64,000 nt of DNA from positions 822,528 through 886,527 of the forward strand of contig OY970292.1 of assembly GCA_963716145.1 (NCBI GenBank), written 5' to 3'. Below, in pieces: positions 15,935 to 59,314 of the stretch. How positions within the stretch are numbered: position 1 is the stretch's first letter; each line of letters starts with the position of its first letter. Both the position numbers and the translations under genes were made by a program. The stretch is from Candidatus Levyibacteriota bacterium (GTDB lineage Bacteria > Patescibacteriota > Microgenomatia > Levybacterales > UBA12049). A model generated the notes under the pieces. It had not been told where the DNA came from. It saw nothing but the letters and a program-made list of their open reading frames with translations, and ran no database searches.

Positions 15935-15948
15935 TGCCTAAATAAATC

Positions 15949-17235
<1,287 letters not shown>

Positions 17236-19076: not shown

Positions 19077-19078
19077 AA

Positions 19079-19692: not shown

Positions 19693-19695
19693 AAA

Positions 19696-30317: not shown

Positions 30318-30339
30318 GGAAATTCTCCGAAGGAGGCAT

Positions 30340-43779: not shown

Positions 43780-44970
43780 CTAGTGCCCCGGCTTAATTGA
43801 CATTGCAGCCCCAATAACTAAAGCCCCGGCAAGAGCTGCAAGAAGCGCGGCAAGGCCCAAAGGTGCACCTCCGACGATAGCACTGCCTTTGAGAGCCTTG
43901 AGAGTATTTGTTTTCCATCTTGCTCTTTCTTCAGCATCCATGCCTTTAGTCTGTTCCTCAAGCATTTTGTCAACAATACCGCTTAGATCGCCTTTACGGA
44001 CTGATTCCAATAAGGCTTGGGCTGCTTCTGAGTCAAACTCACCGTTTTGTATTTGGTCAAATAAGCCATCAAAAGGTGTTTCTCCTTTTGCTTCAGCTTC
44101 AGAAAATAGCTTATAGGCATTGCCCAAAACTGCTTGCTCAGCTTGTGCTGCTTCCAGCCTTTGTTGAGCTGTAGCATTATTGTTATCAATCTTTAATGTT
44201 GCTTCTAGATTCGCGATCTCGGCACTAAGCTTATCGGATTGTTGAGCAAACGCTTCTTTACTTCCGCCGAGAACCGTTACTGCTTCCTGAAAATCATCTT
44301 TTGTCAGGACAACTTTTCCATCCAAGTTTTCTAACAATTTTGTTGCTTGAGGTGAACGGGTTGTTTCGTCAGGAGAGATGGAGCTTATAAGAGATCTGAT
44401 ATCATCAGCTGTGGGGATGCGGTTCTTGGCAGCATTTTCTATCGCCGGATCAAGACTTTCATCCATATCCCGATTGCCCATACAAGCTTGGAATACCTGC
44501 TGACTGTCTTCGCCTACAAAAAGTTTTGCATATGTATTCAGCTCTGCCTGCATTTGAAGACCAAGGACCTCTTCTCTAGTATAGGCAAGTTTTAGGCGTG
44601 CATCGCCTTGTTCATCTTTACCTGCGCTATCCTCAAGCACCTCTCCATCCTTATCTTCAAAGTAACATAGCAGTTGACCATCAGGTGTAACACCTGCAAT
44701 ACCAGCTAAGCGGATTTCTCCTTCCGGAAATTCCTGGTCTTTGCCACCCCTATCTTGTCTTATGACTGCCGGCATCATTACGTCATGTCCATCGCCGGTT
44801 GCTTTGGGAAATTTTCTTGCAAATGGCTGATCGCCGTCATTCTCACCAGTAAGCAATGCGTGAGATATGGCAAGCGCAGATTCCTCAGCAGTTTTTGCGG
44901 ATTTAATCTCCCCTTTATCACCGATTAGCCTTTTGCGGTGTTCTGACATAAGAATCGACTTAACCAACAT
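43780..44970 (-). CDS. hypothetical tail-anchored protein (acidic, Ala/Glu/Gln-rich coiled-coil, C-terminal TM); may extend upstream to 45262 across poly-T/A indels
   Basis: 396 aa; C-terminus GSAIVGGAPLGLAALLAALAGALVIGAAMSI; upstream ORF 45056..45262 (MSAPGTAATETPGMNADELAAAKSFDAKKKGPKLKKKEKAKRKK) in another frame through T9/T10 runs; G+C visibly higher than flanks. Confidence 0.5.
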   Translation of the reverse strand: MLVKSILMSEHRKRLIGDKGEIKSAKTAEESALAISHALLTGENDGDQPFARKFPKATGDGHDVMMPAVIRQDRGGKDQEFPEGEIRLAGIAGVTPDGQLLCYFEDKDGEVLEDSAGKDEQGDARLKLAYTREEVLGLQMQAELNTYAKLFVGEDSQQVFQACMGNRDMDESLDPAIENAAKNRIPTADDIRSLISSISPDETTRSPQATKLLENLDGKVVLTKDDFQEAVTVLGGSKEAFAQQSDKLSAEIANLEATLKIDNNNATAQQRLEAAQAEQAVLGNAYKLFSEAEAKGETPFDGLFDQIQNGEFDSEAAQALLESVRKGDLSGIVDKMLEEQTKGMDAEERARWKTNTLKALKGSAIVGGAPLGLAALLAALAGALVIGAAMSIKPGH

Positions 44971-45316
44971 GGCTGCTTCTGTACCTCTTCTTTCAGCTGT
45001 CCTAGGAGTTCTTTCAGCTGTCTCCTCTTCTGTATCGCTGTAGCCTGCGCCTCTGTCAAGGTAGCAGCGGTTGCTGGATCTGGGGAGGGGGCATCTGCAG
45101 GTCTGCTAGCATCACTCCTAGTAGGTGGCCCTTTTTTCTTTTCGCCTTTTCCTTTTTTTTCAGTTTTGGGCCTTTTTTTTTGGCATCAAAGCTTTTGGCT
45201 GCAGCCAATTCGTCTGCGTTCATACCGGGTGTTTCTGTTGCTGCTGTTCCTGGTGCTGACATATTACTACTATCATAGTTGAAACTTTACCACCGATCAA
45301 GTATGATTTTAAGTAT

Positions 45317-48300
45317 ATGCTTGCAATGGAAAGCGGAGATAGTGGTGGCGGAAAATTGGGGCGGGCCACCGAACGGGCCAAAACTGCCATCAAATCAAAG
45401 TTTAGTAATAAATCTGATGCAGCTCCAAGTGATGCTCCAAAGCACCCGGCTCTTAATACAATTAAAGAGAGAATATCTCCTTTTTTACTCAGGGAGCAAA
45501 CAGGAACAGGTGAAACAACTCTTGATTGGCAGGGACGGGAAGTGCAAATTAAAGAGCGGACCGGCTCTATTGATCCCGAATTGGTCACTGATTTTTCTAA
45601 AAGCCTGAAAGGCGACCTGGAAAGATTGATGGATATTCAGCAAAATACACCGGACGTCTTTGATAGATTGATTAACGACCCGCATTTTCGCCCGTATAGA
45701 GATCTTTTTGATAAATATACAAGGCTTAAAGAAGGCTCAGCTGCGGTAGGCGGGCACGCGATCAGGGAATTTGATTCAACATCGTTTGATGACTACATGG
45801 GGACTGATGCTGGATTCGCGACTGCTTTTGAAATGCGGAAATTAAAACTTCAGGATATGGCAACCAACGCCGCGGTGTTTCTTGATGACAATCTTCCCAC
45901 GACAAATCCTGAGGAAATTGAAGAACAGGATGTCAATACAGGACCGGGAGGTAAGGCTAGGGAAATAGGTAGAAAGGTTGGGCATTTTTTTCAAGAACCG
46001 CGTACCAGATACGGACGAAAAATACCTATAGATTTGGGTATTACGACTCTGGACTCAAAAGGAGATATAGCAGCGGTCATAACTGCTGCAAGTACTTTCC
46101 TTGGGGGGTTGGGAGCACTGGGTGGCGGTCCCGTAGGAGGATTGATTGGAGCTGGTATTCCACCGGCTGTTGTGGGGGTAATACACGCCTTTCATAGGGG
46201 GGAGAGGGTTACTGTTGAGCAAGCAAGAGCCGCTTTACGTATTGCCCGAGCAACGGATCCTGTAAGACGGGAATGGGCCCGTGAGATGTATAACGTAGAC
46301 TCAAGCAATCTTGGAATTGATAACAACGGAAATGTAGTTATACGCCCAGGTATCAGAAATAACAGGCAGCTTGCCAGTCCGGCAAAACAGAGTGAGGTTT
46401 TGCGCGATATTTTGGTTCGGGAAAATGCACAAATCATGAAAGCTCAGGAAGCGATGGGTATACGCCGGGAACAACGCGGTGGAATGGATTTGGTGGGATT
46501 GACTCGCCCCGGGCGGAATGAGCAATTTGCCCAACGCGATATACCTATTGAGATAAGTGTACAGCGCGAATTTAAGCGGGACCCTAGGTTAGTTGATAGA
46601 AATGGTAACACCTGCCAATTTCAAAATGCACAAGGTGAGTGGGTGGATAACGCCAATTTTAATTGGCGGAATACAAACCGATTAGCAGCATGGGATCTGC
46701 GTCAAGAAATTCACAGAAGGCTCCTTTCAGAAAAGATAACAGGAGACTTTAATGATATTGCTGAATGGGGCAAAAATCACAATACGGATTTAGGCAGCGC
46801 AATCACAAAAGCAAAAGAGCGCGGACCATTGATACTTACGGAAAGAAAAGCGGCATTAAATGAGCAAGACCGGAATCTTACCGAGGATCAGCGTCGCTTA
46901 AGAGCAGAAATTCCGCCTTTTACAGAGCTGGATACTGTCTTAACTCAAGTAGCTGCTGCCAGAAGAGCTGCTGAACAGGCAAGGAGAAATGTTACACGGG
47001 TAACCGCTCACCCAACTGGATTAACTGATGAATTATCGCTTTTAACTCAAGTATTAAATGATGTTCCAGCAGGCGGAGCTGCTCCGTTTGAACTGGATGT
47101 TATGCATGAGGGGGTTCGCCTACGCATTACCAGTATTGCCGGAAGAGAAGCTGAAGCATTGAGGACTTACCAGAACGCAGTTAATACAATTTCCGGATCT
47201 GTGCCTACAGGAAAAGGAGCTGACCAAATTATCACTGCAAGACTAAAAATTGCTAAGGATATTTACGATCAGCAGATGATTCCAATTAATAGAGACAAAA
47301 CAGCTGTCACCGCAGCCCGGCAGGCCATAGATGCTGCAAATACCGCAGCGCGTGAAGTATTTAATAGGTTTAATACTCTTGATGCGCAAAGAGAAGCTAC
47401 AGCAACTACATCAACAGAGATGCAGACCGCAAGAACAACTATCGAAGGATGGACCACTCCCGGAGTTGCTGATTTAAGTACAGCAGAGTTACAAAATCAA
47501 TCTTTCGATGAGCTCTTGACCCGCATAAATGCGGTAAATGCAGGGGGTGGGGGTGGCTGGCCGGAAGCTGAGAATGATACTCCTGAGAACAGAGAACGTC
47601 TGGTACGTGCGATGGCTGAAGCAAGAGCTATAGCATTAGAGCCACGCGTGGCGACACCAAGCGCCAATTTCGAGGATGCGATTAATCCCAATGGTTTTGC
47701 ATTGCTCGAAACAGATTTGTTGACAAGATCATCTGAGGATATAAGAAATATAATGGCTGATTTGATTGCAAGGGCTCCAGCTGGATCACCTCTTAACGGT
47801 TTGGTCATTCCTGCGAATGCAATAGATCAAATAAATGAGATCAAAAATGAAGCACAAGCCCGCTTTACAGCCCGCTTAAGAGCCATGCAGGCACTTGACA
47901 GAGAGATTACCAGCAGAAAAACGATAATCGAAGGCCAGAAAACGCGTATTGATAGAGAGGGTATTCAAACTCCCGAACTTGATGCTATAGAGAGAGCATA
48001 TCCGCTGGTAGATGATATCAGGAGCACTATTGATGCTATGACTGTTGTACCGCGGCTTGTTGAGTTCCTTGATACAGCGCAGGCAGCCACCCAAGCCCGT
48101 TATTTACCTGAGGAGCAAGCAAATAACCATTCAATAGCCTATGCCAATATAATGGAGTTGATTTTTAATCACCGCGATGATAATGATGCGAAGGTCGGTA
48201 CAGTAACCGGTAGGGCAGTTGCTTTTGAAAGAAACAGTAATTTCCTGACAGAAGATGTGCTCCGAGATCTGCTGGTACAGCAGTTTAATTTAGTAGGTCC

Positions 48301-48472
48301 TCCTCTTCCAGCTGGAGTCGTTGGTCCGCCAGCCACTCCGACATTTGAGCAGGCAATAGATCAATTGCGTAACGAAATCCAAGCCGGAAACATACCAAAA
48401 GGGCAGTTCGCGCAATTCCTGACAGAAAACGTCATATATGGATATATGGAACCGCTTGTACCGGTGTTATAA
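45317..48472 (+). CDS. giant hypothetical protein (1051 aa), Ala/Arg/Gly/Thr-rich, mostly helical with one Gly-rich hydrophobic segment
   Basis: no recognisable catalytic motif; GLGALGGGPVGGLIGAGIPPAVVGVIHAF at about 270-300; codon and amino-acid usage unlike host genes (sampled G+C about 50-58 percent). Confidence 0.6.
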   Translation: MLAMESGDSGGGKLGRATERAKTAIKSKFSNKSDAAPSDAPKHPALNTIKERISPFLLREQTGTGETTLDWQGREVQIKERTGSIDPELVTDFSKSLKGDLERLMDIQQNTPDVFDRLINDPHFRPYRDLFDKYTRLKEGSAAVGGHAIREFDSTSFDDYMGTDAGFATAFEMRKLKLQDMATNAAVFLDDNLPTTNPEEIEEQDVNTGPGGKAREIGRKVGHFFQEPRTRYGRKIPIDLGITTLDSKGDIAAVITAASTFLGGLGALGGGPVGGLIGAGIPPAVVGVIHAFHRGERVTVEQARAALRIARATDPVRREWAREMYNVDSSNLGIDNNGNVVIRPGIRNNRQLASPAKQSEVLRDILVRENAQIMKAQEAMGIRREQRGGMDLVGLTRPGRNEQFAQRDIPIEISVQREFKRDPRLVDRNGNTCQFQNAQGEWVDNANFNWRNTNRLAAWDLRQEIHRRLLSEKITGDFNDIAEWGKNHNTDLGSAITKAKERGPLILTERKAALNEQDRNLTEDQRRLRAEIPPFTELDTVLTQVAAARRAAEQARRNVTRVTAHPTGLTDELSLLTQVLNDVPAGGAAPFELDVMHEGVRLRITSIAGREAEALRTYQNAVNTISGSVPTGKGADQIITARLKIAKDIYDQQMIPINRDKTAVTAARQAIDAANTAAREVFNRFNTLDAQREATATTSTEMQTARTTIEGWTTPGVADLSTAELQNQSFDELLTRINAVNAGGGGGWPEAENDTPENRERLVRAMAEARAIALEPRVATPSANFEDAINPNGFALLETDLLTRSSEDIRNIMADLIARAPAGSPLNGLVIPANAIDQINEIKNEAQARFTARLRAMQALDREITSRKTIIEGQKTRIDREGIQTPELDAIERAYPLVDDIRSTIDAMTVVPRLVEFLDTAQAATQARYLPEEQANNHSIAYANIMELIFNHRDDNDAKVGTVTGRAVAFERNSNFLTEDVLRDLLVQQFNLVGPPLPAGVVGPPATPTFEQAIDQLRNEIQAGNIPKGQFAQFLTENVIYGYMEPLVPVL

Positions 48473-48478
48473 TAAATT

Positions 48479-48832
48479 ATGAACGCATTAGATATTATCA
48501 AGGCATTACCAATCGATGAGGTAGTAAAGACCAAAATCTTGAATAATTATGATTCTTTTACTGTGGCTCAGAAATCCGCAACCGATCATCTAGCATGGAC
48601 CACCTATGACGCTTTATATGAGGAGAGGCTTAGGAAAAATTTGGGAGTCCAGTATGATAACGTAGAACAAGGAGGAGAGAAATTTGGCAACGACTTTTAT
48701 AAAAGAGCACTTAAAAAAACGGAACGTGAAATGACAACTGAATTTAAGGAATCTGTTTCCAAGCATGATCTTTCTGCTGCGAGGAAGGCAATGGAAATAA
48801 TTGTTCGGGAAATTCAAGTCGCAAAAAAATAA
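48479..48832 (+). CDS. hypothetical protein (117 aa), operon partner of the giant protein
   Basis: starts 7 nt after the stop of 45317..48472. Confidence 0.4.
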   Translation: MNALDIIKALPIDEVVKTKILNNYDSFTVAQKSATDHLAWTTYDALYEERLRKNLGVQYDNVEQGGEKFGNDFYKRALKKTEREMTTEFKESVSKHDLSAARKAMEIIVREIQVAKK

Positions 48833-48850
48833 TTGGTTAGCTTATTTCTG

Positions 48851-49618
48851 CTACTGGTCCTCAATTCTTCCAATCTCTCTTACTTCTCTGATAGTTTCCT
48901 CGGGCTTGAGTTTGGTTGTATCGATGTTCTCACCTCTATAGAGGAGTAACATACCTTCAATGATTTCCTTGGCCTTTAGGGCATCAGCACGCCAGAGATG
49001 AGATACAAAGACCTTTTTAACCTTGAGCGGATGCGGTCCGTAATCAATGATCAGCTTTGCCATAAAAAGTGCTGTGTGAACCCGCACATCCATAATCTCT
49101 TTAAGCATAATGCTTGTCATGGCTTCCGTAGCAAAGAAACTCTTCAGGGTTATATCCACTTTGTTGGCGTCAATTGTCACGGTGTCGGGGAAAAAGTCAA
49201 AAGGAAAAACAGTTTTGGCTCTGAAAAGTATTTTATCAGCCCGCGATACGAGTATATCGAGCTCTTTTTTAGCTTGCTGTGAATCATCAGTTTCATTGGG
49301 TTCATTTTGTTGGTCACTTTCAGATTTACCGCTATCAGCTTTCTTCTGCTTTTTCTTTGATCCGCCGTCCATACCGCTTCTTTCAGAAGGTGTCATATAG
49401 GGATCTTCAGCTAGCATCTCGGCTCTTTTTGCAAGAGTCTCATCGCTTCGTTTCTCTTTGTAGCCTTTTTTAGTACCATTACCAGATTTTTTATCGGGAG
49501 GGCTGGGAGATTTTCTCCGAGCAGGTTGTTGTCGGCGTTTTGCGCCGTTTTGAAAAATTGGTGCTGCTGCCTCATCAAAAAGTATATTATTATCATTCAT
49601 GACTCCTAAGTATAGCAA
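48851..49618 (-). CDS. hypothetical protein with basic disordered N-terminus and conserved-looking C-terminal domain
   Basis: 255 aa; Lys/Ser-rich N-terminal 120 aa. Confidence 0.45.
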   Translation of the reverse strand: MLYLGVMNDNNILFDEAAAPIFQNGAKRRQQPARRKSPSPPDKKSGNGTKKGYKEKRSDETLAKRAEMLAEDPYMTPSERSGMDGGSKKKQKKADSGKSESDQQNEPNETDDSQQAKKELDILVSRADKILFRAKTVFPFDFFPDTVTIDANKVDITLKSFFATEAMTSIMLKEIMDVRVHTALFMAKLIIDYGPHPLKVKKVFVSHLWRADALKAKEIIEGMLLLYRGENIDTTKLKPEETIREVREIGRIEDQ

Positions 49619-49699
49619 TTTGAAGCAAAGAATTGAATAGAGATCGGTAAGAGAACTATAAGATAAAAGTTAGTTTCCTTCGACAGGCTCAGGACTTAG

Positions 49700-50524
49700 C
49701 TAATTTAAAATATAAAGATCCTGGTTATATCCGCCAACTGCCACAAATTCCGCTTCATGAGTGATAATGGCCTCAAAGGGAAGGCAGGCAAAGCAGCCGC
49801 CCTTTGGACAGATGTATTCTCCAGCAAGCCTTGCCTGTTTTACTCTTAAGGCAGTTTCCAGGACTGTTTGAAAAGCAAGATCTTTATCAGGTAGTTTCAT
49901 CTCAGTGGGTGTATCATCCCGGTCCAAATACCAATAGCTGGCTTTACTGACCAATCTGCTCTGGCAATTTTCAACCAGAAGTAAATAAATAGGAAGTTGG
50001 AGGGAATTGACCTTTTCATCATTTTTACCTGTTTTGAAATCGATTATGTGAAGAGTATTATCAGGCATATACTCAAGCCAGTCAATCTTACCGCAAAGTA
50101 TTATATTATCCGCTACAGATAAATAATAATTTGGCAGTTCTTTATTGATTTTAATAGCTTTTTGAATTAGTGGGCCAGGGTTATCAATAACCCGCTTTAA
50201 CATTTGTACGCCCCGTTCTTTTATTGCATGCTCTTCCTCTTTGTTCTTAAAACCTCCAAGTTTGCCGGTTACTTTTTCCCAAGATAAGTTATATTTATCA
50301 ACAAGCGGCTCTTTAAAGCGGTCCTCAACCCGTAGAGTAGATAATGCTTCAAGCACAACGTGCACTGTTTGTCCAAGAGCAAGCGAGGGATTTATGATAT
50401 TCACTTTGTGTCCCGTTTGCGGGTCTTTGTAAACATTTCTAAGGTAATAAAGCCTCGGACAAGAAAGAAAATCACTGATGGATGAGTTAGATACCCAGAC
50501 CGCGCTATATTTATCTTGGGGCAT
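49700..50524 (-). CDS. Cas4/RecB-like PD-(D/E)xK nuclease with Cys4 Fe-S motif (stand-alone)
   Basis: 274 aa; GKIDWLEY...HIIDFKTGK (D...D/ExK); one N-terminal Cys (DFLSCPRLYY) plus CPKGGCFAC at the C-terminus, as in Cas4/AddB Fe-S nucleases. Confidence 0.6.
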   Translation of the reverse strand: MPQDKYSAVWVSNSSISDFLSCPRLYYLRNVYKDPQTGHKVNIINPSLALGQTVHVVLEALSTLRVEDRFKEPLVDKYNLSWEKVTGKLGGFKNKEEEHAIKERGVQMLKRVIDNPGPLIQKAIKINKELPNYYLSVADNIILCGKIDWLEYMPDNTLHIIDFKTGKNDEKVNSLQLPIYLLLVENCQSRLVSKASYWYLDRDDTPTEMKLPDKDLAFQTVLETALRVKQARLAGEYICPKGGCFACLPFEAIITHEAEFVAVGGYNQDLYILN

Positions 50525-50535
50525 AAAAGCGGGGT

Positions 50536-50982
50536 TTAACTGCCAAAAGTAGGTATTTTTAGGCTACGAATATCCCCTAGGCCAAATGCGCTTAGGACAA
50601 TTTGTACTATGAAGTAAGCAACAAAGGCGACAATGAGACCCACAATGGCTGCAACGATATGCTTTCTCGCTTCATCAACTTTTCCTTTGTCTCCACCGGA
50701 GGTTATCCATCTGATTCCACCATAAACTAGGTAAAAAAGAGCGATGATAACTGCCGCGATCAGAAGAAATGTTAATACAGTGCCTATGATGCCACCTGCT
50801 TTATCTGCTTTGAAGTTGTCGCAGAGTTTGAAAAAAGTTGAACTCCGAGGGCAGGGATCAAGATCTGTCTCTGCAAACGCAGGAAGAGCTGAGTAGGCGA
50901 AAGCACTAAGTCCTAATAATATTGCTGAAACCTTTTTCATAAGTACATATCTATGATAGAACAATGTTTTTCTGCTTGTCAA
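50536..50982 (-). CDS. VirB2/TrbC-like two-TM pilin-like protein (paralog 2)
   Basis: 148 aa; signal-like N-terminus; YGGIRWITSGGDKGKVDEARKHIVAAIVGLIVAFVAYFIV. Confidence 0.45.
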   Translation of the reverse strand: MTSRKTLFYHRYVLMKKVSAILLGLSAFAYSALPAFAETDLDPCPRSSTFFKLCDNFKADKAGGIIGTVLTFLLIAAVIIALFYLVYGGIRWITSGGDKGKVDEARKHIVAAIVGLIVAFVAYFIVQIVLSAFGLGDIRSLKIPTFGS

Positions 50983-50997
50983 TATAGCAAAATATAA

Positions 50998-51321
50998 TTA
51001 AGCAAAATTTAGAAGGTTTACCTTGAAGAAATAGCCAATAAGGCTAACAATGAAAAACGCAGCAAACGCGACAACAAGCCCAATTATTGCCCAGGTCAAT
51101 TTTGCACGAGCTGCTTGAAGCTTTGTTTTATCTCCGCCTGATAGAATCCATTGTATGCCGGCAACTACTATAAATATAAGCGCCAAAGCTACGCAGATTA
51201 TGATCATGATGATAAAGCTATTGCGGAAAACCTTACTTACTGTACCAATGCCTCCGGTTGGGATACCAGGAGGGGCAGAGATTGTTTGTCCGCCGGGAAG
51301 AGTTAATGCCAAATAGTTCAT
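50998..51321 (-). CDS. VirB2/TrbC-like two-TM pilin-like protein (paralog 3)
   Basis: 107 aa; AGIQWILSGGDKTKLQAARAKLTWAIIGLVVAFAAFFIV. Confidence 0.45.
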   Translation of the reverse strand: MNYLALTLPGGQTISAPPGIPTGGIGTVSKVFRNSFIIMIIICVALALIFIVVAGIQWILSGGDKTKLQAARAKLTWAIIGLVVAFAAFFIVSLIGYFFKVNLLNFA

Positions 51322-51495
51322 ACATATACAGTACTAAGTTCGGGCGATAAAAGCAATAGTACTAGGACAATTTTTAATTTTCAGTTTTCAATTTTCATTG
51401 AATTTTCAATGACTAAATGTTTAAAAATTAAAACATTGTGATTTGATTGAAAATTGTAAATTTCAAATTGAAAATTATAGTGTTACAATAATTGT

Positions 51496-52929
51496 GTGGA
51501 GCAAGTTCATTTTGAATCGCTTTATCCTGATACAGCCTGGTCCTCAGAAATTGAAAAACTGGGAAGTTTTATAAAAGACGGTACATCCTGTCAATTATTG
51601 AGTATACCTGGTGCCGGAAGATCAACTATTTTGGGTCTTTTGGCGCATAACAGCAAAATACGTATAAAGCATTTCGGTAAGAATCAGGCTGCAATCCATT
51701 TTGTAGCTGTTAATTTTTCAGAGATTAAAAAACGTCCGCTTTTTGACGTGATGAAGTTTTTGTTTCTGTCTCTTGCCGACTCTCTTCGGGCGCGCAAAAT
51801 GGAGGAATATGAGAAGATTAATGATCTGTTCAAAGAATCTTTGGGATTTAATGATGAGCTTGTGCTTTTTCAGGCTCTAAAAGAAGCTATTGATTATCTT
51901 GCTCTTGAAAGAAAATTTAAGATTGTTTTTTTGTTTGATCGATTTGAGGAATATGTGCCCAAAGTAACCAGCGAGTTTTTTACCAATCTCAGAACTCTTA
52001 GGAATCGTGCCAAATATCAATTTTCAGTGATTTTTTCTCTCAACAGACCGCTTGAGGAGCTCTTGGAACAGGATCAGCTTTTCGACTTTTATGAATTTAT
52101 CGCAGGACATTACGTTTACTCAGGCCTATCTGATAAAGTCACAACAGATTTCCGCGTTGCATATATAGAAAAAATTACAGGAAAAAAAATTCTGCCAAAA
52201 ATACTTACCGGTATTCTAGAAGAGACAGGGGGAGTGGGAAGACTTATCAAGTTATCAGTTGAGACAGTCCTGGCGAATAATAAATTCGAAGCACGAAGCA
52301 CGAAATCCGAGACAAATATAAATAACAAAAATCCAAATACGAAAAATGTTTCGAGTTTCGACCTGCCTGCCGGCAAGGCAGGTATTCGGATTTCGGATTT
52401 GGGTTTGGGGGAATATCTTTTTTCACAAAAACCAATCCAAAGTGCTCTAATGGAGATTTGCCGCTCGCTTTTACCAGTTGAGCAGGCGGCACTTATTAAT
52501 AACAAATTTGATGACCCGCAAGCAGAAAGTTATCTTGAGACTGTTGCAATAATTAAAGCTAGGAAAATACAAATTCCTCTTTTTGAGAAACATATTAAAT
52601 CGCACGTTGGGAAATTTCAGCAAGATGCCAAAAAAATTGTATATGATCAAAACACAAACGCTATAAAAATGAACGAGGTTGTCTTATCTGATCAGCTGAC
52701 TTCGTCTGAGTTTAGACTGCTGAAATTTCTTCTGCAAAATCCTGACAGAATTGTTGATAGAGACGCGCTGATTGGCGTTGTATGGTCAAGCGTAAAATCA
52801 ACCGCCGGTATAACCGATCAGGCAGTTGACCAACTGGTTTTTAGAGTAAGACGGAAAATAGAAGACGACCCTAATAATCCCGTTCACCTGCTTACTGTTA
52901 AAGGGCGGGGATTTCGATTCGTTTCCTAA
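51496..52929 (+). CDS. regulator: N-terminal P-loop-like ATPase (Walker A Lys replaced by Arg) fused to C-terminal OmpR/PhoB-type winged-helix DNA-binding domain
   Basis: 477 aa; LSIPGAGRSTILGLL; IVFLFDRFEE (Walker B-like); C-terminal ...LTSSEFRLLKFLLQNPDRIVDRDALIGVVW...DQLVFRVRRKIEDDP...LLTVKGRGFRFVS matches the trans_reg_C pattern. Confidence 0.6.
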   Translation: MEQVHFESLYPDTAWSSEIEKLGSFIKDGTSCQLLSIPGAGRSTILGLLAHNSKIRIKHFGKNQAAIHFVAVNFSEIKKRPLFDVMKFLFLSLADSLRARKMEEYEKINDLFKESLGFNDELVLFQALKEAIDYLALERKFKIVFLFDRFEEYVPKVTSEFFTNLRTLRNRAKYQFSVIFSLNRPLEELLEQDQLFDFYEFIAGHYVYSGLSDKVTTDFRVAYIEKITGKKILPKILTGILEETGGVGRLIKLSVETVLANNKFEARSTKSETNINNKNPNTKNVSSFDLPAGKAGIRISDLGLGEYLFSQKPIQSALMEICRSLLPVEQAALINNKFDDPQAESYLETVAIIKARKIQIPLFEKHIKSHVGKFQQDAKKIVYDQNTNAIKMNEVVLSDQLTSSEFRLLKFLLQNPDRIVDRDALIGVVWSSVKSTAGITDQAVDQLVFRVRRKIEDDPNNPVHLLTVKGRGFRFVS

Positions 52930-52994
52930 CATTTGTAATCTTCCTGTAATTCAAATATCAAGTCTATTTTATCAACAGATACTATAATCCTCCT

Positions 52995-55900
52995 ATGATA
53001 GAGCAAAAATTGACAGCCAGAGAGGCTTCCCGATATGATAGAAGAGGAGCAAAATATATGTCAGAAACAGGAGCAGCCGTATTGGAAAGATCGGAAGAAT
53101 CAGATGAAGAAAAACTGTATAAAAAATGGGAGCCTTTTTTGGCGCAAGCTACCAAGCCCGAAGAACGCGCCCACATACTTGATCTTATAACTCAACGTAG
53201 AGAACCACCCTCAGAAGATCCAAGTGAATTAACGCAGGCCAGATTGAGAGAAATGTCCCAGGATGAGGTTGATAAGAAATTTGCCGCCATGATCAAAAAG
53301 CCTGAGATTAACAGGCCTGAAGATTTAAAGGGGCTTGACAAGATACTGGATAAGTACCAGGAGCAGGCAAAGGGCGCAGACGGTCTATTGGGAGATGAGT
53401 CGGTAGCACCAGGGGAAGTCTTGCGGGATAAGGACAGCTGGGCAGAGTATGGATGGAGCGATACTGAGAAAATCAGAGTTGCTGGTGACCTAAAGACCAC
53501 CCTTGCGAGCTTAAAGCTTACCGATAAACAGGTAGATACTATGATGGAAATTTTTCTTTCCGAAGGTAAATTGCCTGAACATTTAACAAAAGGAAAAATA
53601 GAAGAGATATCAGCCAACATATGGGATGAATGGGAGAAAGACCCAAATATCAGACATGATTATAAAAATGAATTCGATATATTTGTAATGCAGAAGTTGG
53701 GAATTACGGAAAAGCAAATAAAGCATTTTATTTTGACTGATAAATTTGAACAGGATAATGATATGTATGTTGATTATAATTCTCCACGAAATATTGAGGC
53801 CCTTGCCTGGCAGATCATGCACACCCCCGGTAAAGGATACGCAGGGTGGGGTATTAAGGGCGAGCGTCCGCTTCTTGAGATGCGGATAGTAAAGAATGCT
53901 GATGGAACTGTTGACACAGACAAGAGCCGTTACCGTGTAAATACAGCAAATATGGTTGCTTGGGCACGTTACAGCATGTATACCGCCTATGATCTTGACC
54001 GTGAAACTCCTCACAATTTTTTTCAGGAAATTGCTTTAAAGAAAAGATACCCGCTTTCTCTTCAAGAGATGCTTCTTAATCCTGATCAGTATTTTGTTTC
54101 GGAAGACGGAGAGACAAAATATAAACAAATGCTGCTGGAGTGGTATAAGGAAGCGGCTGTTTTTACAACTGTCAGGGGCTGGGATGTTGCTTACCGTGGA
54201 GTAATAGGAGATAGCGAGGAGCTGATGAAGGTTTTTAGGGAAATGTATAACACCCAAAATTTACTGACCAGAGGAGCTCTTGGTTCCAACATACTTAATC
54301 TTATGACAACTATGCCATTGGATTTTCAGGGGACAAAAGACGGTCAATGGAATAGCGATAGTAAGATGGGGGCCGGTTGGATTGATATCTATAGAGCTTA
54401 CGACAGCATGACTGATTTTGATAACCTGCAAAAGATACTTGGCAAGGGCTCAAAATTTTTTACCCGCGCAGGTTTCTCGGAGGCGATAAAAGAAGTGGAA
54501 AAAGGCAAGATTACAGCAACAGGTATAACTAAGTCAAGAGTGTTTATGGGTCGTAAGGAGCTTGAGTTTTTTAAAAATGCATTTGATGACAAGGGGGAGA
54601 TTTCATCTGAGGCGAATAAGGTAAATTTTATAAAACTTATTAATATTTTCGGAACCAAGCAGCCTGGAGCCGGAGTTGAGTTTGCAGTGCGTTTTGCACT
54701 GCGCAATGCTATTGCTGAAAAATACGGGGAGGAAGTGTACGTTAAAAATGCAAAGGGTGAAATCATGAAGGATGAAAATGGAAAAAAGATAAAAACGCAT
54801 GCTTTTGTTACTACACAAGGGGAGAAAAAAGGCGACGAGATAGAAAACAGGATAGCAGATAATGAAAGTCTATATATAGCTGAGGCAATTGCCTGGTCGC
54901 TGGCCAGACCATTTGGCGCGGCCGCCAAAAATGATCCTGATTCCATAGCGCATGACTATATGGCCAAAATTTATAATACCCAGCTGCTGCGTGAGAAATA
55001 TCCTCATCGCGGAGACAAACTTGGTAATGAGCTGACAATGAATTTAATCAAGCGGACAGGTGTTGATATTCTTAACGCTGTAGTAACAGAAGCCCAGACA
55101 CCCGAGCTGGATTCAGAGGGAAAAGTAATTTATAAAACAAAAGACGATAGGGCAAACAACCGCCCGGTAATGCGTGACAAAACTCCAATGGAACTCTTTG
55201 TTGAGCTGTCTGAGTTCAGGACAATAGCAGCTAGTGAGATACGGTTAATGAGAGATAAGCTTATGGGAATGACCAGGGGAACAGAGGAATGGAAAAGGCA
55301 AAAGGATTTGGTAGATGCCTACGAACAGCAATCAGAGCAAAAATACCAGAATATAGCTTCCCAAATATCTATCAGACAAAGAGTGCTTTCGAACTATTAT
55401 GAAGATCATTTGAGGTATGCCTCTGACATATTTAAGCAGGTTATGAACGCGGATGAAATAGGATTTGATAAATTCACCGATTACAATGTCTTCGGAGGTG
55501 TGCGGTTCAAGCAGGCGGAATTTCAGAAAGAGGTGCAGGATACCTGGATTCATAAGATCCGTTACATGCTCGATACTTATTCGAGTCTTAACTTTAATCA
55601 GACTGTGCGTGTTTTGGATCAGAAAGAGACATCAAGACGGCATTGGGACGATCATCGTGAGTCTGAACCTGCTTTTCATGATGTTCCGCTGGGTGAGGCG
55701 CTTTTCGGGCACGAAATGCTCAATATACCAAAATTCTGGAAAAGAGACGATAAAGGGAGGCCGATAAATTTGAGAGATAATAAAGGCCGGAAGATGAAGG
55801 GACTCTACGAAATTGATTATTTGAAAGTACAGGAGAACAAACAGGATGTCTGGAAGCAATGGTTTATGATCAAAGTTGCCGCGGATTTACGCTCGCACAA

Positions 55901-56210
55901 AATGCTACACGGTAATGATGTCAGATATAATTTCACATATTATCAAAATGTTATTGAGTCACTGGGAAGAATACCGGGGAATATTTTGCAGGATGAATAT
56001 AAGATGAAGGATACAGTAGTAAACGAGCGTTTTTTCACAAAAGCCAATATTGCATGGCTGCGTGAAAAAGCAGGCGTAACGAATTTTAACCTTTATATGG
56101 GAGCAATACTTAAAGATCTGATTTTGGAAGAGGATAAGCCTGAGGAGGGAATAGGACTGCTTCTTGCCTTAAGTCTCGCGATGAAAGCAATTGTACGGGA
56201 TAAAGTTTAG
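52995..56210 (+). CDS. giant hypothetical soluble protein (1071 aa), Lys/Glu/Asp/Trp/Tyr-rich
   Basis: single uninterrupted ORF, no signal peptide or TM, no recognisable motif. Confidence 0.6.
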   Translation: MIEQKLTAREASRYDRRGAKYMSETGAAVLERSEESDEEKLYKKWEPFLAQATKPEERAHILDLITQRREPPSEDPSELTQARLREMSQDEVDKKFAAMIKKPEINRPEDLKGLDKILDKYQEQAKGADGLLGDESVAPGEVLRDKDSWAEYGWSDTEKIRVAGDLKTTLASLKLTDKQVDTMMEIFLSEGKLPEHLTKGKIEEISANIWDEWEKDPNIRHDYKNEFDIFVMQKLGITEKQIKHFILTDKFEQDNDMYVDYNSPRNIEALAWQIMHTPGKGYAGWGIKGERPLLEMRIVKNADGTVDTDKSRYRVNTANMVAWARYSMYTAYDLDRETPHNFFQEIALKKRYPLSLQEMLLNPDQYFVSEDGETKYKQMLLEWYKEAAVFTTVRGWDVAYRGVIGDSEELMKVFREMYNTQNLLTRGALGSNILNLMTTMPLDFQGTKDGQWNSDSKMGAGWIDIYRAYDSMTDFDNLQKILGKGSKFFTRAGFSEAIKEVEKGKITATGITKSRVFMGRKELEFFKNAFDDKGEISSEANKVNFIKLINIFGTKQPGAGVEFAVRFALRNAIAEKYGEEVYVKNAKGEIMKDENGKKIKTHAFVTTQGEKKGDEIENRIADNESLYIAEAIAWSLARPFGAAAKNDPDSIAHDYMAKIYNTQLLREKYPHRGDKLGNELTMNLIKRTGVDILNAVVTEAQTPELDSEGKVIYKTKDDRANNRPVMRDKTPMELFVELSEFRTIAASEIRLMRDKLMGMTRGTEEWKRQKDLVDAYEQQSEQKYQNIASQISIRQRVLSNYYEDHLRYASDIFKQVMNADEIGFDKFTDYNVFGGVRFKQAEFQKEVQDTWIHKIRYMLDTYSSLNFNQTVRVLDQKETSRRHWDDHRESEPAFHDVPLGEALFGHEMLNIPKFWKRDDKGRPINLRDNKGRKMKGLYEIDYLKVQENKQDVWKQWFMIKVAADLRSHKMLHGNDVRYNFTYYQNVIESLGRIPGNILQDEYKMKDTVVNERFFTKANIAWLREKAGVTNFNLYMGAILKDLILEEDKPEEGIGLLLALSLAMKAIVRDKV

Positions 56211-56215
56211 AGATG

Positions 56216-58084
56216 CTATGATTTGGGTTTTGCGCCATTTTTATTTCTTCGTCTTTGCCTAAAGGGTACTCTTTCACCTCTTTCTTTCCGAATTGCTTCC
56301 CTTTCCGCCTCAATGGTTTTTTCGAATCCGCCCTCCCCATGTACTGTTCCTTGTCTCTCAATAAGTCTTCTTGATGCCAGACCTCTCTCAGCCATAGAAC
56401 CGAGAATAGGCACGCGGGATCCGGCTCCGATTATCTTTTCACCGGTTTTACGTTTCAAAACAGCAAGAGCTCCCTTGTCACCGCTTCTCGCGTCATATCT
56501 ATTTAGATGCTTCATTGCACGCCCCACCGGTGCGCCAACTACCGCAGCTCCAGCGGCAATTCCAGCTCCAACAATTCCCGGAGTGCCGATATTTTTGACA
56601 CCCATTTTCTCACGTAGAATGGTCTGGATAGTCGGGGCAATCAGAAGCACTCCAAATGCCATAAGCGCTCCGAAATTGGTGCTTGATGGATTTCCCACAA
56701 GGGGAGGTACGAATTGATTGGGAGATGCCGTACTATATATATCCAAAAGCAAACGCGCGGCAATTAAAAGAAACACTGTTAGAGGAAAAATGGCAATATT
56801 GACAAAAAGCCTTCTGATCCAGCTTTCAAAACCCATAGGTTTGGTTGGAAGCAGCCCAAAAACAATAATAATAGGCGCCAATATTACATAGGCCAGAGTA
56901 TAGATATATGCTTTAAGGAGATTAAACCAGATTTTGAATAGATTTATAACCAAAATTACGAAAATGATAATTTGCGCGACAGCGCTGACGAGAACAGCAA
57001 GGAAATTGGCAACGCCTTTTTTGGCGCATTTTATGGGATGATACCACTTGCATTTTGTTTCCAGATCATTTTCATCAAACATCAAACTTCTTGCTACATT
57101 GCCGATAGTGTTTCCCGCGCTGTCGGCAACTGATTTGGTCATGACATGAAATCCGCCGTCGCGATCATTACCTTCACCAATAGATAAAAATCCTGTTTCC
57201 TCGCTGCACCTGGCAAAAATTTGATTAAAATAAGTAATAGGAGTCTGAAGAATTGTGCTGGTTGCTTTTTCTGAAAGCTTTTCCGGCCCGGCAGTTTTAT
57301 CTGTACAGTTGCCTACATCCGGGTCATGAGTGGCAGTAAGTAAGTAGGATCCTGCATAAGTAGTCACCCACATCAGGTCAATAAGCATAGCCGAAATCGC
57401 GTAAGAGAGAGTAATAAGTATTATCGAAACTATTACTTTGGGAATTTGATTCTGAATAGTCATGACTGTCCTGGGGTCAATTTTTATCCTTAGCATGATA
57501 CCAACGCCAATAAATACAAACGCAAGAGTCAGAAGAACATAGGCGATATTGCGCACAGTTTCCCAGAGTCCGATAATCGGCTGGAGGCCGCACAATCCGT
57601 AGCCTGATTTAGCAGGATCACAAGGCGCTACCGCGGCATAAGCTTTGGGGACAATGCCGAATTTATCTGAGATATACCGCGTATACGTTCCTGTTGATGC
57701 AATCGGCTGATAGGTTGAGGTGATCAGACCGGTTGAAATACCCACAAGTCCCCCAATTTCCGGCTTGCCATACTCATCGAGTACAGGTTTACTCATCCCT
57801 AGTCTTTTGGTCTCAGGATTGATGCCAAGACAGCCTTGAGTCGGGTTGATCGGATCAACCCCGATTAGTAGACAATGTATAGCTGATAAAACTTCAATTG
57901 TTGTTGACTGGGCAAAAGTGTGTTGATTGAGGGGAACATCCGGATCCATATTTGGAGCCGCGAAAGAATTGGTTGTCGTAGTAGCCGAAGTGGGGGATAT
58001 TTGAGCAAATGAGGGCTTGGAAGCCATAAATAACAACCCAACAATAACAAATAACAAACAGAATAAAACGCGGACAGAGCGCAT
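56216..58084 (-). CDS. VirB6/TrbL-like polytopic membrane protein with signal peptide and long basic C-terminal tail
   Basis: 622 aa; MRSVRVLFCLLFVIVGLLFMASKPSFA signal; about 8 TM helices in the middle; hydrophilic Arg/Lys/Gly-rich C-terminal 110 aa. Confidence 0.4.
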   Translation of the reverse strand: MRSVRVLFCLLFVIVGLLFMASKPSFAQISPTSATTTTNSFAAPNMDPDVPLNQHTFAQSTTIEVLSAIHCLLIGVDPINPTQGCLGINPETKRLGMSKPVLDEYGKPEIGGLVGISTGLITSTYQPIASTGTYTRYISDKFGIVPKAYAAVAPCDPAKSGYGLCGLQPIIGLWETVRNIAYVLLTLAFVFIGVGIMLRIKIDPRTVMTIQNQIPKVIVSIILITLSYAISAMLIDLMWVTTYAGSYLLTATHDPDVGNCTDKTAGPEKLSEKATSTILQTPITYFNQIFARCSEETGFLSIGEGNDRDGGFHVMTKSVADSAGNTIGNVARSLMFDENDLETKCKWYHPIKCAKKGVANFLAVLVSAVAQIIIFVILVINLFKIWFNLLKAYIYTLAYVILAPIIIVFGLLPTKPMGFESWIRRLFVNIAIFPLTVFLLIAARLLLDIYSTASPNQFVPPLVGNPSSTNFGALMAFGVLLIAPTIQTILREKMGVKNIGTPGIVGAGIAAGAAVVGAPVGRAMKHLNRYDARSGDKGALAVLKRKTGEKIIGAGSRVPILGSMAERGLASRRLIERQGTVHGEGGFEKTIEAEREAIRKERGERVPFRQRRRNKNGAKPKS

Positions 58085-58150
58085 AGCTATTTTAGTTTGA
58101 GGTATTTTGAATGGGTTGTCAAGTTCTGCAAAGCAGAATTTTAAGCCTTG

Positions 58151-58235
58151 CGGAGAGGACGGGACTCGAACCCGTAATCCCGTTTCCGGGACACGCGCTT
58201 TCCAAGCGCGCCGACTACCATTATCACACCTCTCC
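58151..58235 (-). tRNA. tRNA-Ser (anticodon GGA), type II with long variable arm
   Basis: acceptor GGAGAGG/CCTCTCC, anticodon arm CGCGC-TTGGAAA-GCGCG, variable hairpin CCCGGAAACGGG, T-arm ACGGG-TTCGAGT-CCCGT, discriminator G. Confidence 0.85.
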
Positions 58236-58459
58236 TTTTTTTAATCTAAATTTCTTCTAAAATATTTTCTCCCACGCGCACTCTTGTCCGCCTCTGGCGG
58301 AAGACCACCCCGCCAAAGGCGGGCAGGTATGCGACCCTTCCATTTCAAAACTATTATATAAGGTAAATGTCAAGCGATTTAGCTCGAAATTTCCTATACT
58401 TGTCTGGTAATTATACCTGATTAGTTTCATATTTGCATAAAAGGGAGGGAGGATATAAA

Positions 58460-59314
58460 ATGACAGAGAACGATTATATTATGGACCCATTACCACCAGA
58501 TAGACCGGGATCTAGACCAGGAGATCCCCGAGCGCCACGTGAAGCCGGGCCTCCGATAGTACCTAGGCCTACCCAAGATCCGAAAGAGGCAGCAGATCAT
58601 CCTCTTGGTCCAGCTATTCCCTCACCGTCCAGAAAGGAAGGTGTAGGTGATGAAACCGTGGAGGCCTGGACAAAAGGCGCAACCTCGCGCAGCAGAATGA
58701 GTCCATCAGAAACTGTCGAGAAAGTATTGCCCGCACGTGGACTGGATTTGCCAACTGGCGAAAGAGGACAAGAAGATGCTGCCCGCGACTTGGAACTAAC
58801 GACGAGGGTAGTAAATGAAAACATTAGTATTCCTGAGATGGCTGCTATTGCTAATGAATTTGGAATTCCAAGGAATATGGTGTCGCACGAATTTGCGCAG
58901 ATGGGTGTTAAGCCGGAGAAAATCGAGGAACTTATGCAGCATCAGCATCTGCTGCTGCCCGAATTAACAGAGGCCGAAAAAGTAAACGTCTCTGATCCTG
59001 TCACCGAAGAGGTAATACAAGCCGGAAAGACAAACGCAGAAAAGGAATTGGAAGCTGGAATTTTTGAAGATGTAAAGAAAAGGTTTGAGACCGAAGCTGA
59101 ACCTCAGGAGGGTGACTTAGAAAAGATAGCCACAGTAAGAAAGGGATTTAATAAGTTTTTATTTGACGAGAATGAGGGTATTTTAAGAAGAGAGGGACGA
59201 AAAGCAAGACTTTTTGGAAAACCGCTGGTGGTTGGATTAATGGCCACATTTCTTGCCTATCTTTCGCTTTTGAGTCTTATGACAAAGTGGGCGGCCAAAA
59301 GAGTAGGAAGTTAG
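58460..59314 (+). CDS. hypothetical tail-anchored protein, Pro/Arg/Glu-rich N-terminus, C-terminal TM
   Basis: ATG 58460 after gggagggagg; C-terminus GKPLVVGLMATFLAYLSLLSLM; G+C higher than host. Confidence 0.45.
   Translation: MTENDYIMDPLPPDRPGSRPGDPRAPREAGPPIVPRPTQDPKEAADHPLGPAIPSPSRKEGVGDETVEAWTKGATSRSRMSPSETVEKVLPARGLDLPTGERGQEDAARDLELTTRVVNENISIPEMAAIANEFGIPRNMVSHEFAQMGVKPEKIEELMQHQHLLLPELTEAEKVNVSDPVTEEVIQAGKTNAEKELEAGIFEDVKKRFETEAEPQEGDLEKIATVRKGFNKFLFDENEGILRREGRKARLFGKPLVVGLMATFLAYLSLLSLMTKWAAKRVGS

Follow-up and report, generated by a model that had tools for sequence, protein, structure and literature searches.

A probable half of a split type IV secretion locus, with a structurally unmatched giant protein family, between rpsI and tRNA-Ser(GGA) of a Candidatus Levyibacteriota genome

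The genes that lie between rpsI and tRNA-Ser(GGA) in a Candidatus Levyibacteriota genome were analysed here as a block (positions 43780-58084) of a 64,000-nt stretch of DNA, hereafter the window. The right part of this block, at 50.5-58.1 kb, encodes two VirB2-like pilins, a winged-helix regulator, a giant protein of 1071 aa and a divergent VirB6, and comparison with related loci makes it most probably one half of a chromosomal, non-conjugative secretion system of type IV (T4SS) of the monoderm, MPF-FATA-like type of Patescibacteria, the other half of which stands at 0.5-5.1 kb of the same window. A previous reading made from the letters alone (the sequence-only reading) had placed ten open reading frames (ORFs) in the block, all of which were recovered at those positions, and had seen in them an accessory island, possibly a secretion system, a defence island or a degraded integrative element. 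Its proposed link to a VirB4 module at 0.5-5 kb is borne out by the related loci, in which the same genes are contiguous with those of that module, and the module itself is real as judged by Pfam.

Two halves of one type IV secretion locus

The comparison covered 17 related loci (L001-L017). Profiles built for each gene were scored on the ORFs of L001-L016, and for L017 the table of genes and Pfam matches was used. A metagenome scan with a tight alignment gave six loci, and a contig scan of the GTDB species representatives with the regulator alignment gave a single one, L003, from a metagenome-assembled genome of Candidatus Levyibacteriota, a member of the Microgenomates group of Patescibacteria; the rplM and rpsI of L003 are 87-88% identical to those of the window. 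Two arrangements were distinguished, a split one (L001-L006, L010 and L011), in which the gene order of the window is kept, and a contiguous one (L007, L008, L009, L013 and L015). The components of the two halves in the window are as follows.

561-2708, minus strand: VirB4-like ATPase (P-loop_TraG 2e-25, also AAA_10 and DUF87)
2763-3440, minus strand: TraC-like protein of 225 aa, part of the VirB4 module
3444-4757, minus strand: PrgI/VirB3-like protein with a CarboxypepD_reg domain (Pfam)
4817-5143, minus strand: pil108, third VirB2-like pilin, above the PF18895 gathering score
50536-50982, minus strand: g148, VirB2-like T4SS pilin of 148 aa, with a signal or transmembrane (TM) segment and a two-TM hairpin
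50998-51321, minus strand: g107, VirB2-like T4SS pilin of 107 aa (PF18895 1.1e-8)
51322-51495, no strand: AT-rich spacer of 174 bp from which the pilin pair and the regulator gene diverge; candidate for a control region
51496-52929, plus strand: g477, regulator with an N-terminal variant P-loop domain and a C-terminal OmpR/PhoB-type winged helix
52995-56210, plus strand: g1071, giant protein of 1071 aa, mostly alpha-helical and apparently cytoplasmic, from a family of 850-1890 aa
56216-58084, minus strand: g622, divergent polytopic membrane protein of the VirB6/TrbL family with about eight TM-like segments, convergent with g1071
58150-58235, minus strand: tRNA-Ser(GGA), then four more tRNAs

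In L007, L008, L009, L013 and L015, these genes form one uninterrupted T4SS locus with the contiguous order tRNA-Ser(GGA), VirB6, the convergent giant, the Trans_reg_C regulator, two to four pilins, the PrgI-like protein with its CarboxypepD_reg domain, the TraC-like protein and VirB4. The VirB4-family ATPase is contiguous with pilins, regulator, giant and VirB6 in L007, L008, L009 and L015, and L017 likewise has the order VirB6, giant, regulator and pilin, with a giant of 1890 aa. Compared with L007/L008, the window proteins are 84-85% identical for VirB4, 64-69% for the TraC-like protein, 46-48% for PrgI and 55-61% for the third pilin in the one half, and 55-57% for the regulator, 53-64% for the pilins, 38-47% for VirB6 and 27-29%, over the full length, for the giant in the other. 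The minus-strand order of the window is collinear with the ancestral one, running through g107, g148, about 45 kb of other DNA, pil108, PrgI, the TraC-like protein and VirB4, so that the break point of the split lies between the second and third pilin genes. Altogether, the contiguity found in L007, L008 and the other contiguous loci, and these levels of identity, argue that a single ancestral locus is represented by the module at 0.5-5.1 kb as one half and by the block at 50.5-58.1 kb as the other. The intervening DNA carries DUF2298 and PMT_2 glycosyltransferase genes, PilN/PilO type IV pilus genes, the gene for EF-G and the ribosomal superoperon.

The gene content of the two halves agrees with a T4SS, as they encode a VirB4-family ATPase, VirB3/PrgI-like and VirB6-like components and an array of VirB2-like pilins, the mark of the Patescibacteria variant, with three PF18895 proteins. 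No Pfam match to a relaxase or to a coupling protein (VirD4/TcpA) was obtained among the window ORFs scanned, in agreement with what has been published for most Patescibacteria loci, and the locus thus does not qualify as one of the conjugative type. Neither a VirB8-like nor a VirB1-like gene was detected in the window, where no lysozyme or peptidase gene stands beside virB4 either.

Both members of the pilin pair that the sequence-only reading had taken for tandem VirB2-like paralogues score above the T4SS_pilin gathering threshold. g148 matches PF18895 at 8.5e-10 (39 bits, cut-off 26.6) and NF045849 at 1.3e-7 (31.1 bits, under the 40-bit cut-off), g107 is its paralogue with 49% identity over 57 aa, and orthologues of both are present in all loci. 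The spacer that separates them from the regulator gene carries heptad repeats (TTTTCAG TTTTCAA TTTTCAT) and inverted TTGAAAAT copies. About 40 nt of it beside the pilin start (51322-51365) are conserved in relatives (L001, L002, L004, L005 and L008), reading on the pilin strand ...CTTGCTTTT-N(8-10)-...GTACTGTAT..ATG. The -35-like TTGCTT and the -10-like element stand so near the start codon that the pilin mRNA could lack a leader or begin with a very short one; the spacer may be the control region of the two divergent units.

We propose a model in which an ancestral contiguous locus would have been rearranged in the lineage of the window, with about 45 kb placed between the second and third pilin genes. 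VirB4, PrgI, the TraC-like protein and VirB6 would form the membrane translocon, and the pilins would build a pilus or conduit towards a host cell. The regulator, with its variant P-loop domain as a sensor, would control the expression of the divergently transcribed pilin genes and of the giant gene. The giant would be the partner of VirB6 in the cytoplasm, and would be either a subunit with a structural or substrate-receptor role, in place of the missing coupling protein, or the substrate of the system.

Small accessory genes were seen inside the locus of several relatives. L009 has an AbiEii/DUF6922 toxin-antitoxin-like pair at 16253-17139, inserted within its T4SS locus, and 23S_rRNA_IVP genes (four-helix bundle, bAvd-like) lie between regulator and giant in L002 (9517-9888), L004/L010 (15843-16208 in L004) and L009 (14502-14882). 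The locus therefore tolerates small insertions at fixed points.

The regulator, the giant protein and VirB6

The sequence-only reading had described the product of g477 as a STAND/AAA-like ATPase fused to an OmpR-type DNA-binding domain. The second part of this description stands, since g477 matches Trans_reg_C (PF00486) at 2.7e-17 with 63 bits for a cut-off of 26.2, its eight orthologues score 62-72 bits, and its PDB matches cover the winged helix-turn-helix (wHTH) only, namely the DNA-binding domains of RegX3, KdpE, OmpR and PhoB. As the receiver domain is absent, the protein is not a two-component response regulator. The noted GAGRST motif is also there, as part of a Walker-A-like P-G-[AV]-[GS]-R-x-[ST] (PGAGRST in the window) in which Arg replaces the Walker Lys and which is conserved in nine orthologues, as is an hhhhDRFEE motif. 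The STAND/AAA label itself fared less well: the N-terminal domain gave sub-threshold matches to AAA_16, AAA_22, NPHP3_N and nSTAND1, in two of the nine orthologues, and "STAND-like" is to be taken as a lead only. The regulator has 440-480 aa and adjoins the giant in each locus whose sequence reaches that far, being co-directional with the giant gene, which starts 65 nt downstream, and divergent from the pilin pair.

A word-indexed search with g1071 returned six clusters only, whereas an exhaustive profile search collected 254 representatives at 50% clustering, of which 209 had E<=1e-10; the members are about 850-1890 aa long. They align collinearly from end to end, and in 60 sequences about 15-20 residues are near-invariant. 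Among 35 diverse members, none gave a Pfam domain, and g1071 has no sequence relative in the PDB. An AlphaFold prediction from six sequences was unusable (predicted local distance difference test, pLDDT, 48.8) and was replaced by one from a 60-sequence alignment, for which AlphaFold2 gave a pLDDT of 86.8 and a predicted template modelling score (pTM) of 0.84, with 736 residues at 90 or above. Foldseek searches with this model found no structural relative in the PDB (best E 0.15, TM <=0.11) or in BFVD (best E 0.045). Wherever flanking sequence is available, the giant has the regulator on one side and the convergent virB6 on the other, and the stop codons of giant and virB6 are often -4 to +26 nt apart (5 nt in the window). 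We conclude that the family is, as far as sequence and synteny can tell, an undescribed and fixed component of Levybacteria-type T4SS loci. Two further ideas about g1071 were rejected. A C-terminal tail anchor is not borne out by the family, in which the last helix is hydrophobic enough for an anchor in only 21 of 121 members and is more likely amphipathic, and a paralogy with the other giant of the block, g1051, is unsupported by hhalign, which finds the two unrelated.

The VirB6/TrbL-like polytopic protein that the sequence-only reading had recognised at the right end of the block has about eight TM segments and belongs to a family of more than 484 homologues, several with precomputed PF04610 matches and several labelled Levybacteria at source. 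TrbL (PF04610) was matched by 12 of 32 sampled family members (best 4.1e-7), with no competing family. Membership of g622 in VirB6 is thus transitive, resting on these homologues and on the precomputed matches, to which its polytopic nature (at least five TM segments) and its place in a T4SS locus in 17/17 loci can be added. The tRNA-Ser(GGA) that had been given as the boundary of the block is present and is, from the conserved synteny, a neighbour that virB6 already had in the ancestral locus, rather than a site of integration. Beyond it, a gene for an acidic protein of 293 aa, g293, lies at 58433-59314 on the plus strand, between tRNA-Ser(GGA) and tRNA-Arg(CCG); the protein has a C-terminal hydrophobic anchor and no family match. 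A gene of similar size stands across the tRNA from virB6 in L002, L004, L005, L007 and L008, with 26-31% identity where it is detectable, and g293 may be another fast-evolving tail-anchored protein tied to the locus, outside the boundary first drawn. Its paralogy with g396, the tail-anchored protein at the other end of the block, was rejected by BLASTP or hhalign.

Several observations speak against our interpretation or restrain it. Homology, synteny, distribution, composition and the lack of a structural relative of the giant were observed directly, and every functional role beyond family membership is drawn from context. g622 itself has no Pfam match at E<=0.1 and so falls short of the TrbL gathering score, and its family profile found no solved VirB6 among PDB sequences. 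The L009 protein in the slot of the giant (915 aa) has only marginal similarity to the family. Promoter-like matches occur at 51447-51489, but the promoter and terminator scan was overall at chance level and no operon structure is therefore claimed. The sample of contexts is small, 17 loci that are all Levybacteria-like, and homopolymer frameshifts elsewhere in the assembly (in tuf) call for caution on single-ORF detail; the block ORFs agree in length with their orthologues. Finally, the genes of the left arm may be mere neighbours that the rearrangement brought there, with no link to secretion.

The left arm, the nuclease and the origin of the block

The left arm of the block (43.8-50.5 kb) consists of the following genes.

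43780-44970, minus strand: g396, acidic and Ala-rich, with a C-terminal TM-like segment at residues 371-389 (Kyte-Doolittle hydropathy 2.35)
45317-48472, plus strand: g1051, the large member of a pair, with a Gly-rich hydrophobic hairpin at about residues 251-289
48479-48832, plus strand: g117, its small partner, 7 nt 3' of g1051
48851-49618, minus strand: g255, in which the basic/acidic N-terminus is disordered and a C-terminal domain of some 140 aa is conserved
49700-50524, minus strand: g274, stand-alone Cas4/AddB-type PD-(D/E)XK nuclease (PDDEXK_1 1.9e-18) with a four-Cys cluster

The proteins g396, g1051, g117 and g255, which the sequence-only reading had reported to be without detectable domains, had indeed no match of their own in Pfam, NCBIfam or PHROG, and the same holds for g1071 and g622; among all of these, PADLOC gave only one weak match, of g255 to PD-Lambda-5_A (E 0.0045). 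PDB sequence-profile searches with the g1071, g1051, g255 and VirB6 family profiles returned nothing meaningful. Hydropathy agrees with the C-terminal anchor proposed for the 396-aa protein. L010 has an orthologue of it (55% identity) in the same place beside rpsI, and L003 lacks it, with other genes at that point. The Gly-rich segment proposed for the 1051-aa protein is likewise conserved, its Gly and Pro positions being invariant among homologues. The word-indexed search with g1051 gave one non-self cluster only (59% identity), no PDB or Pfam match was found, and identity to the L001/L002 orthologues is 29-30%, where neighbouring genes have 50-77% and the regulator 56-76%. The small g117 is better conserved (49-73% identity) and always follows a g1051 homologue (L001, L002, L004/L010 and L011). 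A 110-aa ORF in the g117 slot of L005 is a remote homologue of it (hhalign probability 94%, 17% identity), and the slot of L003 holds an unrelated 112-aa ORF and a coiled-coil protein of 613 aa that ends in a hydrophobic stretch rich in Gly and Ala, for which kinship with g1051 was tried by BLASTP or hhalign and rejected. g255 is present in every split-arrangement locus at 47-64% identity, and its C-terminal domain has no Pfam or PDB relative. Other genes come and go in the block, namely those for a DnaJ-like protein, an abhydrolase, 23S_rRNA_IVP and a secreted Cys-rich protein of about 175 aa with repeated 'C(V/I)NGKC', which in relatives lies between the g255 homologue and the nuclease or the pilins at the following positions.

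L001, 6803-7309: Cys-rich secreted protein gene
L002, 5811-6338: Cys-rich secreted protein gene
L003, 7703-8230: Cys-rich secreted protein gene
L004, 18549-19070: Cys-rich secreted protein gene
L005, 19003-19539: Cys-rich secreted protein gene

The window has only 81 bp at that point (49619-49699), so the gene has been lost from this genome.

How far the left arm belongs to the secretion system is the point at which a different explanation has the most weight. The left-arm genes and the nuclease could be unrelated to secretion, encoding lineage-specific membrane or cytoskeletal proteins that the same rearrangement put in place, and we give this a substantial chance, though somewhat under even. 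g396, g1051, g117 and g255 occur in the split-arrangement lineage only and never in the contiguous T4SS loci, which were examined to +/-10 kb; none of the left-arm proteins has a T4SS-related domain; and in the contiguous loci PrgI directly follows the pilin array. Conversely, the adjacency of these genes to the pilins is kept in all split-lineage loci despite extreme sequence turnover. The pairing of a large protein that bears a moderately hydrophobic Gly-rich hairpin with a small one, replaced in L003 by a small ORF and a large protein with a hydrophobic C-terminus, also recalls effector-partner cassettes, and by this architecture and turnover g1051/g117 would be a hypervariable cassette of that kind. 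Hence the suggestion of the sequence-only reading that large proteins of the block are secreted or act as effectors has become somewhat more plausible for g1051/g117, owing to the hypervariability of the pair.

The same suggestion can be made for g1071, which would then be a substrate or effector that the T4SS translocates, and would stand outside the machine itself. Of the conserved genes of the locus, that of the giant evolves fastest (27-29% identity, against 85% for VirB4), its length spreads from 850 to 1890 aa, hydropathy indicates neither a TM segment nor a signal peptide, and an N-terminal LT-x-Y motif (68 of 120 family members) or the C-terminal amphipathic helix could serve as a recognition signal. 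However, there is strictly one copy per locus, with a fixed position and orientation relative to virB6; the full-length collinear homology with its near-invariant residues is more typical of an enzyme or of a subunit of the machine than of a set of effectors; and VirB6 (38-47%) and PrgI (46-48%) evolve fast too. An effector role for the giant is possible but rather unlikely in our view, and because of the single copy, fixed position and full-length collinearity we have a weak preference for a machine or adaptor subunit. A bolder proposal joins the two questions: the g1071 family would be a hitherto unrecognised and structurally novel core component of the Microgenomates-type T4SS, a cytoplasmic subunit attached to VirB6 that does the work of the missing coupling protein or relaxase in recognising or processing substrates, and g1051/g117 would be hypervariable, membrane-inserting effectors, with their partner, delivered to the host bacterium. 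Taken whole, it is tentative and we think it improbable.

The defence island that the sequence-only reading had also envisaged, taken as an anti-phage one around the Cas4-like nuclease and the "STAND-like ATPase", is very unlikely. The nuclease assignment itself is partly upheld. g274 has the D..(D/E)xK and QxxxY motifs of the fold and four Cys, one N-terminal and three C-terminal, for putative Fe-S binding, and the residues C22, D148, D162-F-K164, Q176..Y180, C239, C244 and C247 are invariant in four orthologues; the Cas4 models are reached only below their cut-offs (TIGR00372 33.5 bits for a threshold of 65; PF01930 E 0.014, under threshold), and Cas4 equivalence therefore fails. PADLOC matched g274 to single-gene Cas4, Aga-nuclease and DruK-like models (Cas4 and Aga_Cas4-like_Nuc at 1e-9), and the P-loop-like N-terminal domain of the regulator, with its weak NPHP3_N/nSTAND1 similarity, could be added on the side of defence. 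Against it, the weak g255 match is all that PADLOC gave besides, the other eight proteins having none, so that the only meaningful match is to a stand-alone nuclease. No CRISPR-like array was found in the 64-kb window and no cas gene among the neighbours, and the supposed ATPase, which is one polypeptide with a DNA-binding wHTH, lies within a T4SS locus in every case. The nuclease is present in the window, L002, L003, L005 and L006, with 77-81% identity, and absent from L001, L004/L010, L011 and all contiguous loci while other genes persist; its presence and that of the regulator do not co-vary in the loci examined. This patchy presence points to a facultative passenger and not to a part of the system.

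The composition and position of the block bear on its origin. The sequence-only reading had noted a change of composition after the ribosomal block. A rise exists but is modest (GC 0.445-0.474 at 44-48 kb) and recurs elsewhere in the window, with 0.45-0.47 at 0-1, 17-18, 21-22 and 58-59 kb. The excess is confined to codon positions 1 and 2 (GC1 0.57-0.62), and GC3 of the block genes is 0.34-0.41 for a window range of 0.23-0.46. The shift thus comes from proteins rich in Ala, Gly, Arg and Glu and not from foreign codon usage, and as a sign of foreign DNA it does not hold. L003 and L010 keep the rplM-rpsI junction, and L001, L002, L004, L005, L007 and L008 keep the virB6-tRNA-Ser(GGA) junction. 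L002 has a five-tRNA arrangement identical to that of the window, followed by the same downstream genes at 70-89% identity. Variation among related loci is limited to individual genes (the nuclease and the left-arm cassette), and the block stays at the same junctions. As the sequence-only reading had noticed for integrases, the Pfam scans of the window ORFs found no integrase, recombinase, transposase or further gene of mobile elements, either within the block or next to it, and no match of at least 12 nt to the tRNA-Ser region, as an att-like repeat would give, exists anywhere in 43.6-58.1 kb. The block is not an acquired island. A horizontally acquired accessory island or degraded integrative element inserted at tRNA-Ser(GGA), for which one could cite the adjoining tRNA, the raised bulk GC at 44-48 kb and the genes that come and go (nuclease, 23S_rRNA_IVP, abhydrolase and DnaJ-like), is extremely improbable in view of the ancestral tRNA-virB6 adjacency, the conserved rpsI junction, the host-like GC3, the lack of mobility genes and att-like repeats, and a position that is the same even in relatives whose VirB6 is only 38-59% identical. 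Positional conservation with host-like composition is also what the sequence-only reading had itself named as fatal to an island, and the island can be considered largely refuted.

Elsewhere in the window, the intervening 45 kb begins with an envelope run at 5188-20244 (DUF2298, three PMT_2-type glycosyltransferases, an epimerase, a Big_13 surface protein and PilN/PilO-like genes), and T4SS, type IV pilus and surface-glycosylation genes are thus clustered on one strand beside the translation superoperon. Perfect heptanucleotide tandem repeats are in excess, with five arrays of at least four copies at period 7 where none is expected, and none at periods 4-6 and 8-11. The arrays and others in relatives are listed here.

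11096-11123, 14580-14607, 16519-16553, 30297-30324 and 60860-60894: heptanucleotide arrays of the window
5687-5764, 20418-20469 and 27604-27636: further heptanucleotide arrays of the window
L001, 16595-16664: heptanucleotide array
L002, 18255-18275 and 18580-18607: heptanucleotide arrays
L004, 6256-6283: heptanucleotide array

Several of them lie inside genes of surface-modifying enzymes (PMT_2 glycosyltransferases, DUF2298, FemAB) and one in an amine oxidase gene, and the orthologous FemAB gene has different heptamers in relatives. Since 7 cannot be divided by 3, gaining or losing a single copy would put the gene out of frame, and the arrays are candidate phase-variable contingency loci in a bacterium of the candidate phyla radiation. 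The tuf gene (EF-Tu, about 24895-26080) is readable only with three frame switches, near 25010, 25755 and 25970, each at an A4-A5 run; indel errors left at homopolymers in a long-read assembly are the likeliest cause. Short or split ORFs elsewhere in the window, such as the PilO-like pair at 19079-19354 and 19300-19692, should consequently be read with caution.

Comparison with known secretion systems

The T4SS of Patescibacteria is kin to the monoderm MPF-FATA conjugation machinery (PMC12102498) and consists of VirB4, a TrsD/TraC-like protein, VirB3/PrgI, VirB6 and arrays of VirB2-like pilins, usually without relaxase (PMC12102498, PMC10633639). It is essential in Southlakia epibionticum, where it is encoded at SEML1_0006-0019 (Wang et al. 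2023, PMC10633639), and it is the only T4SS known to be essential to its own bacterium (PMC10633639; FEMS review PMC12857230). The locus described here shares with that of S. epibionticum and with those of the published survey VirB4, the TraC/TrsD-like protein, PrgI/VirB3, VirB6 and a divergent VirB2-like pilin array, as well as the chromosomal location and the lack of a relaxase or coupling protein in the locus. It differs in being split by about 45 kb in the window, and in its P-loop/wHTH regulator and its soluble family of about 1000 aa, both fixed here and neither reported in PMC10633639 or PMC12102498 nor evident in the annotation of the S. epibionticum cluster. In that cluster no equivalent of the giant is evident, its proteins of about 1000 aa being VirB6-like or carrying a DD-peptidase domain. 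VirB6 homologues were found to be 'scarce' in Microgenomatia, and the authors suspected extreme divergence (Quinonero-Coronel et al. 2025, PMC12102498); in the loci compared here, a divergent VirB6 is always present.

With the MPF-FATA systems (pCF10 Prg/Pcf, pIP501 Tra and ICEBs1 Con), the locus shares as its core the VirB4-like ATPase, the PrgI-like VirB3 and a VirB6-like polytopic protein, and also the lack of outer-membrane components (PMC12102498). It differs from them by its VirB2-like pilins, by the relaxase, coupling protein, VirB8-like and VirB1-like components that were not detected in the window, and by being chromosomal and vertically inherited and not on a mobile element. To the TrbL/VirB6 family (PF04610), g622 is linked by its approximately eight TM segments, its place in a T4SS locus and the 12 of 32 members that reach the model, and it departs from that family by a long N-terminal extracytoplasmic region with conserved Cys and by a basic C-terminal tail. 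The nuclease g274 has in common with Cas4/AddB nucleases the PDDEXK_1 domain, D..D-x-K, Q-x3-Y and the one N-terminal and three C-terminal Cys; it differs by scoring below the Cas4 equivalog cut-off, by standing alone without cas genes or CRISPR nearby and by its variable presence.

These comparisons matter because the T4SS of Patescibacteria works without a recognisable coupling protein, relaxase or VirB8. In Levybacteria-type genomes, VirB6 is divergent and never missing, the locus has a regulator of its own, and a family of about 1000 aa, with a confident fold that is unmatched in the PDB and BFVD, is fixed. The regulator, the giant and VirB6 thus become concrete candidates both for the functions that are missing and for the control of the system, and the hypervariable cassette a candidate source of effectors. 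If the giant were indeed a novel core component and g1051/g117 were delivered, then what the essential, non-conjugative T4SS of Patescibacteria transports, and how, would become testable. The foreign island and the new defence system are removed as false leads.

Regulators of the MalT/LAL and AfsR/SARP families fuse a P-loop or STAND domain to a DNA-binding domain, and g477 resembles them in joining a nucleotide-binding-like and a DNA-binding domain in one polypeptide, with an OmpR/PhoB-type wHTH as in SARPs; unlike in SARPs, the domain order is opposite, with the wHTH at the C-terminus, and Arg and not Lys stands in Walker A. Effector-chaperone and toxin-immunity cassettes are a general concept for genes beside secretion systems. 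g1051/g117 share with them a large fast-evolving protein and a small, better conserved partner, replaced or beyond the reach of BLAST between close relatives, but have no recognisable toxin, chaperone or immunity domain, and the likeness is one of architecture and evolutionary behaviour. Altogether, neither a new class of system nor a defence system is supported. The locus belongs to a known kind of system, the T4SS of Patescibacteria, and what is new about it is the split arrangement, the dedicated regulator, the structurally unmatched family of giant proteins and the adjacent hypervariable cassette.

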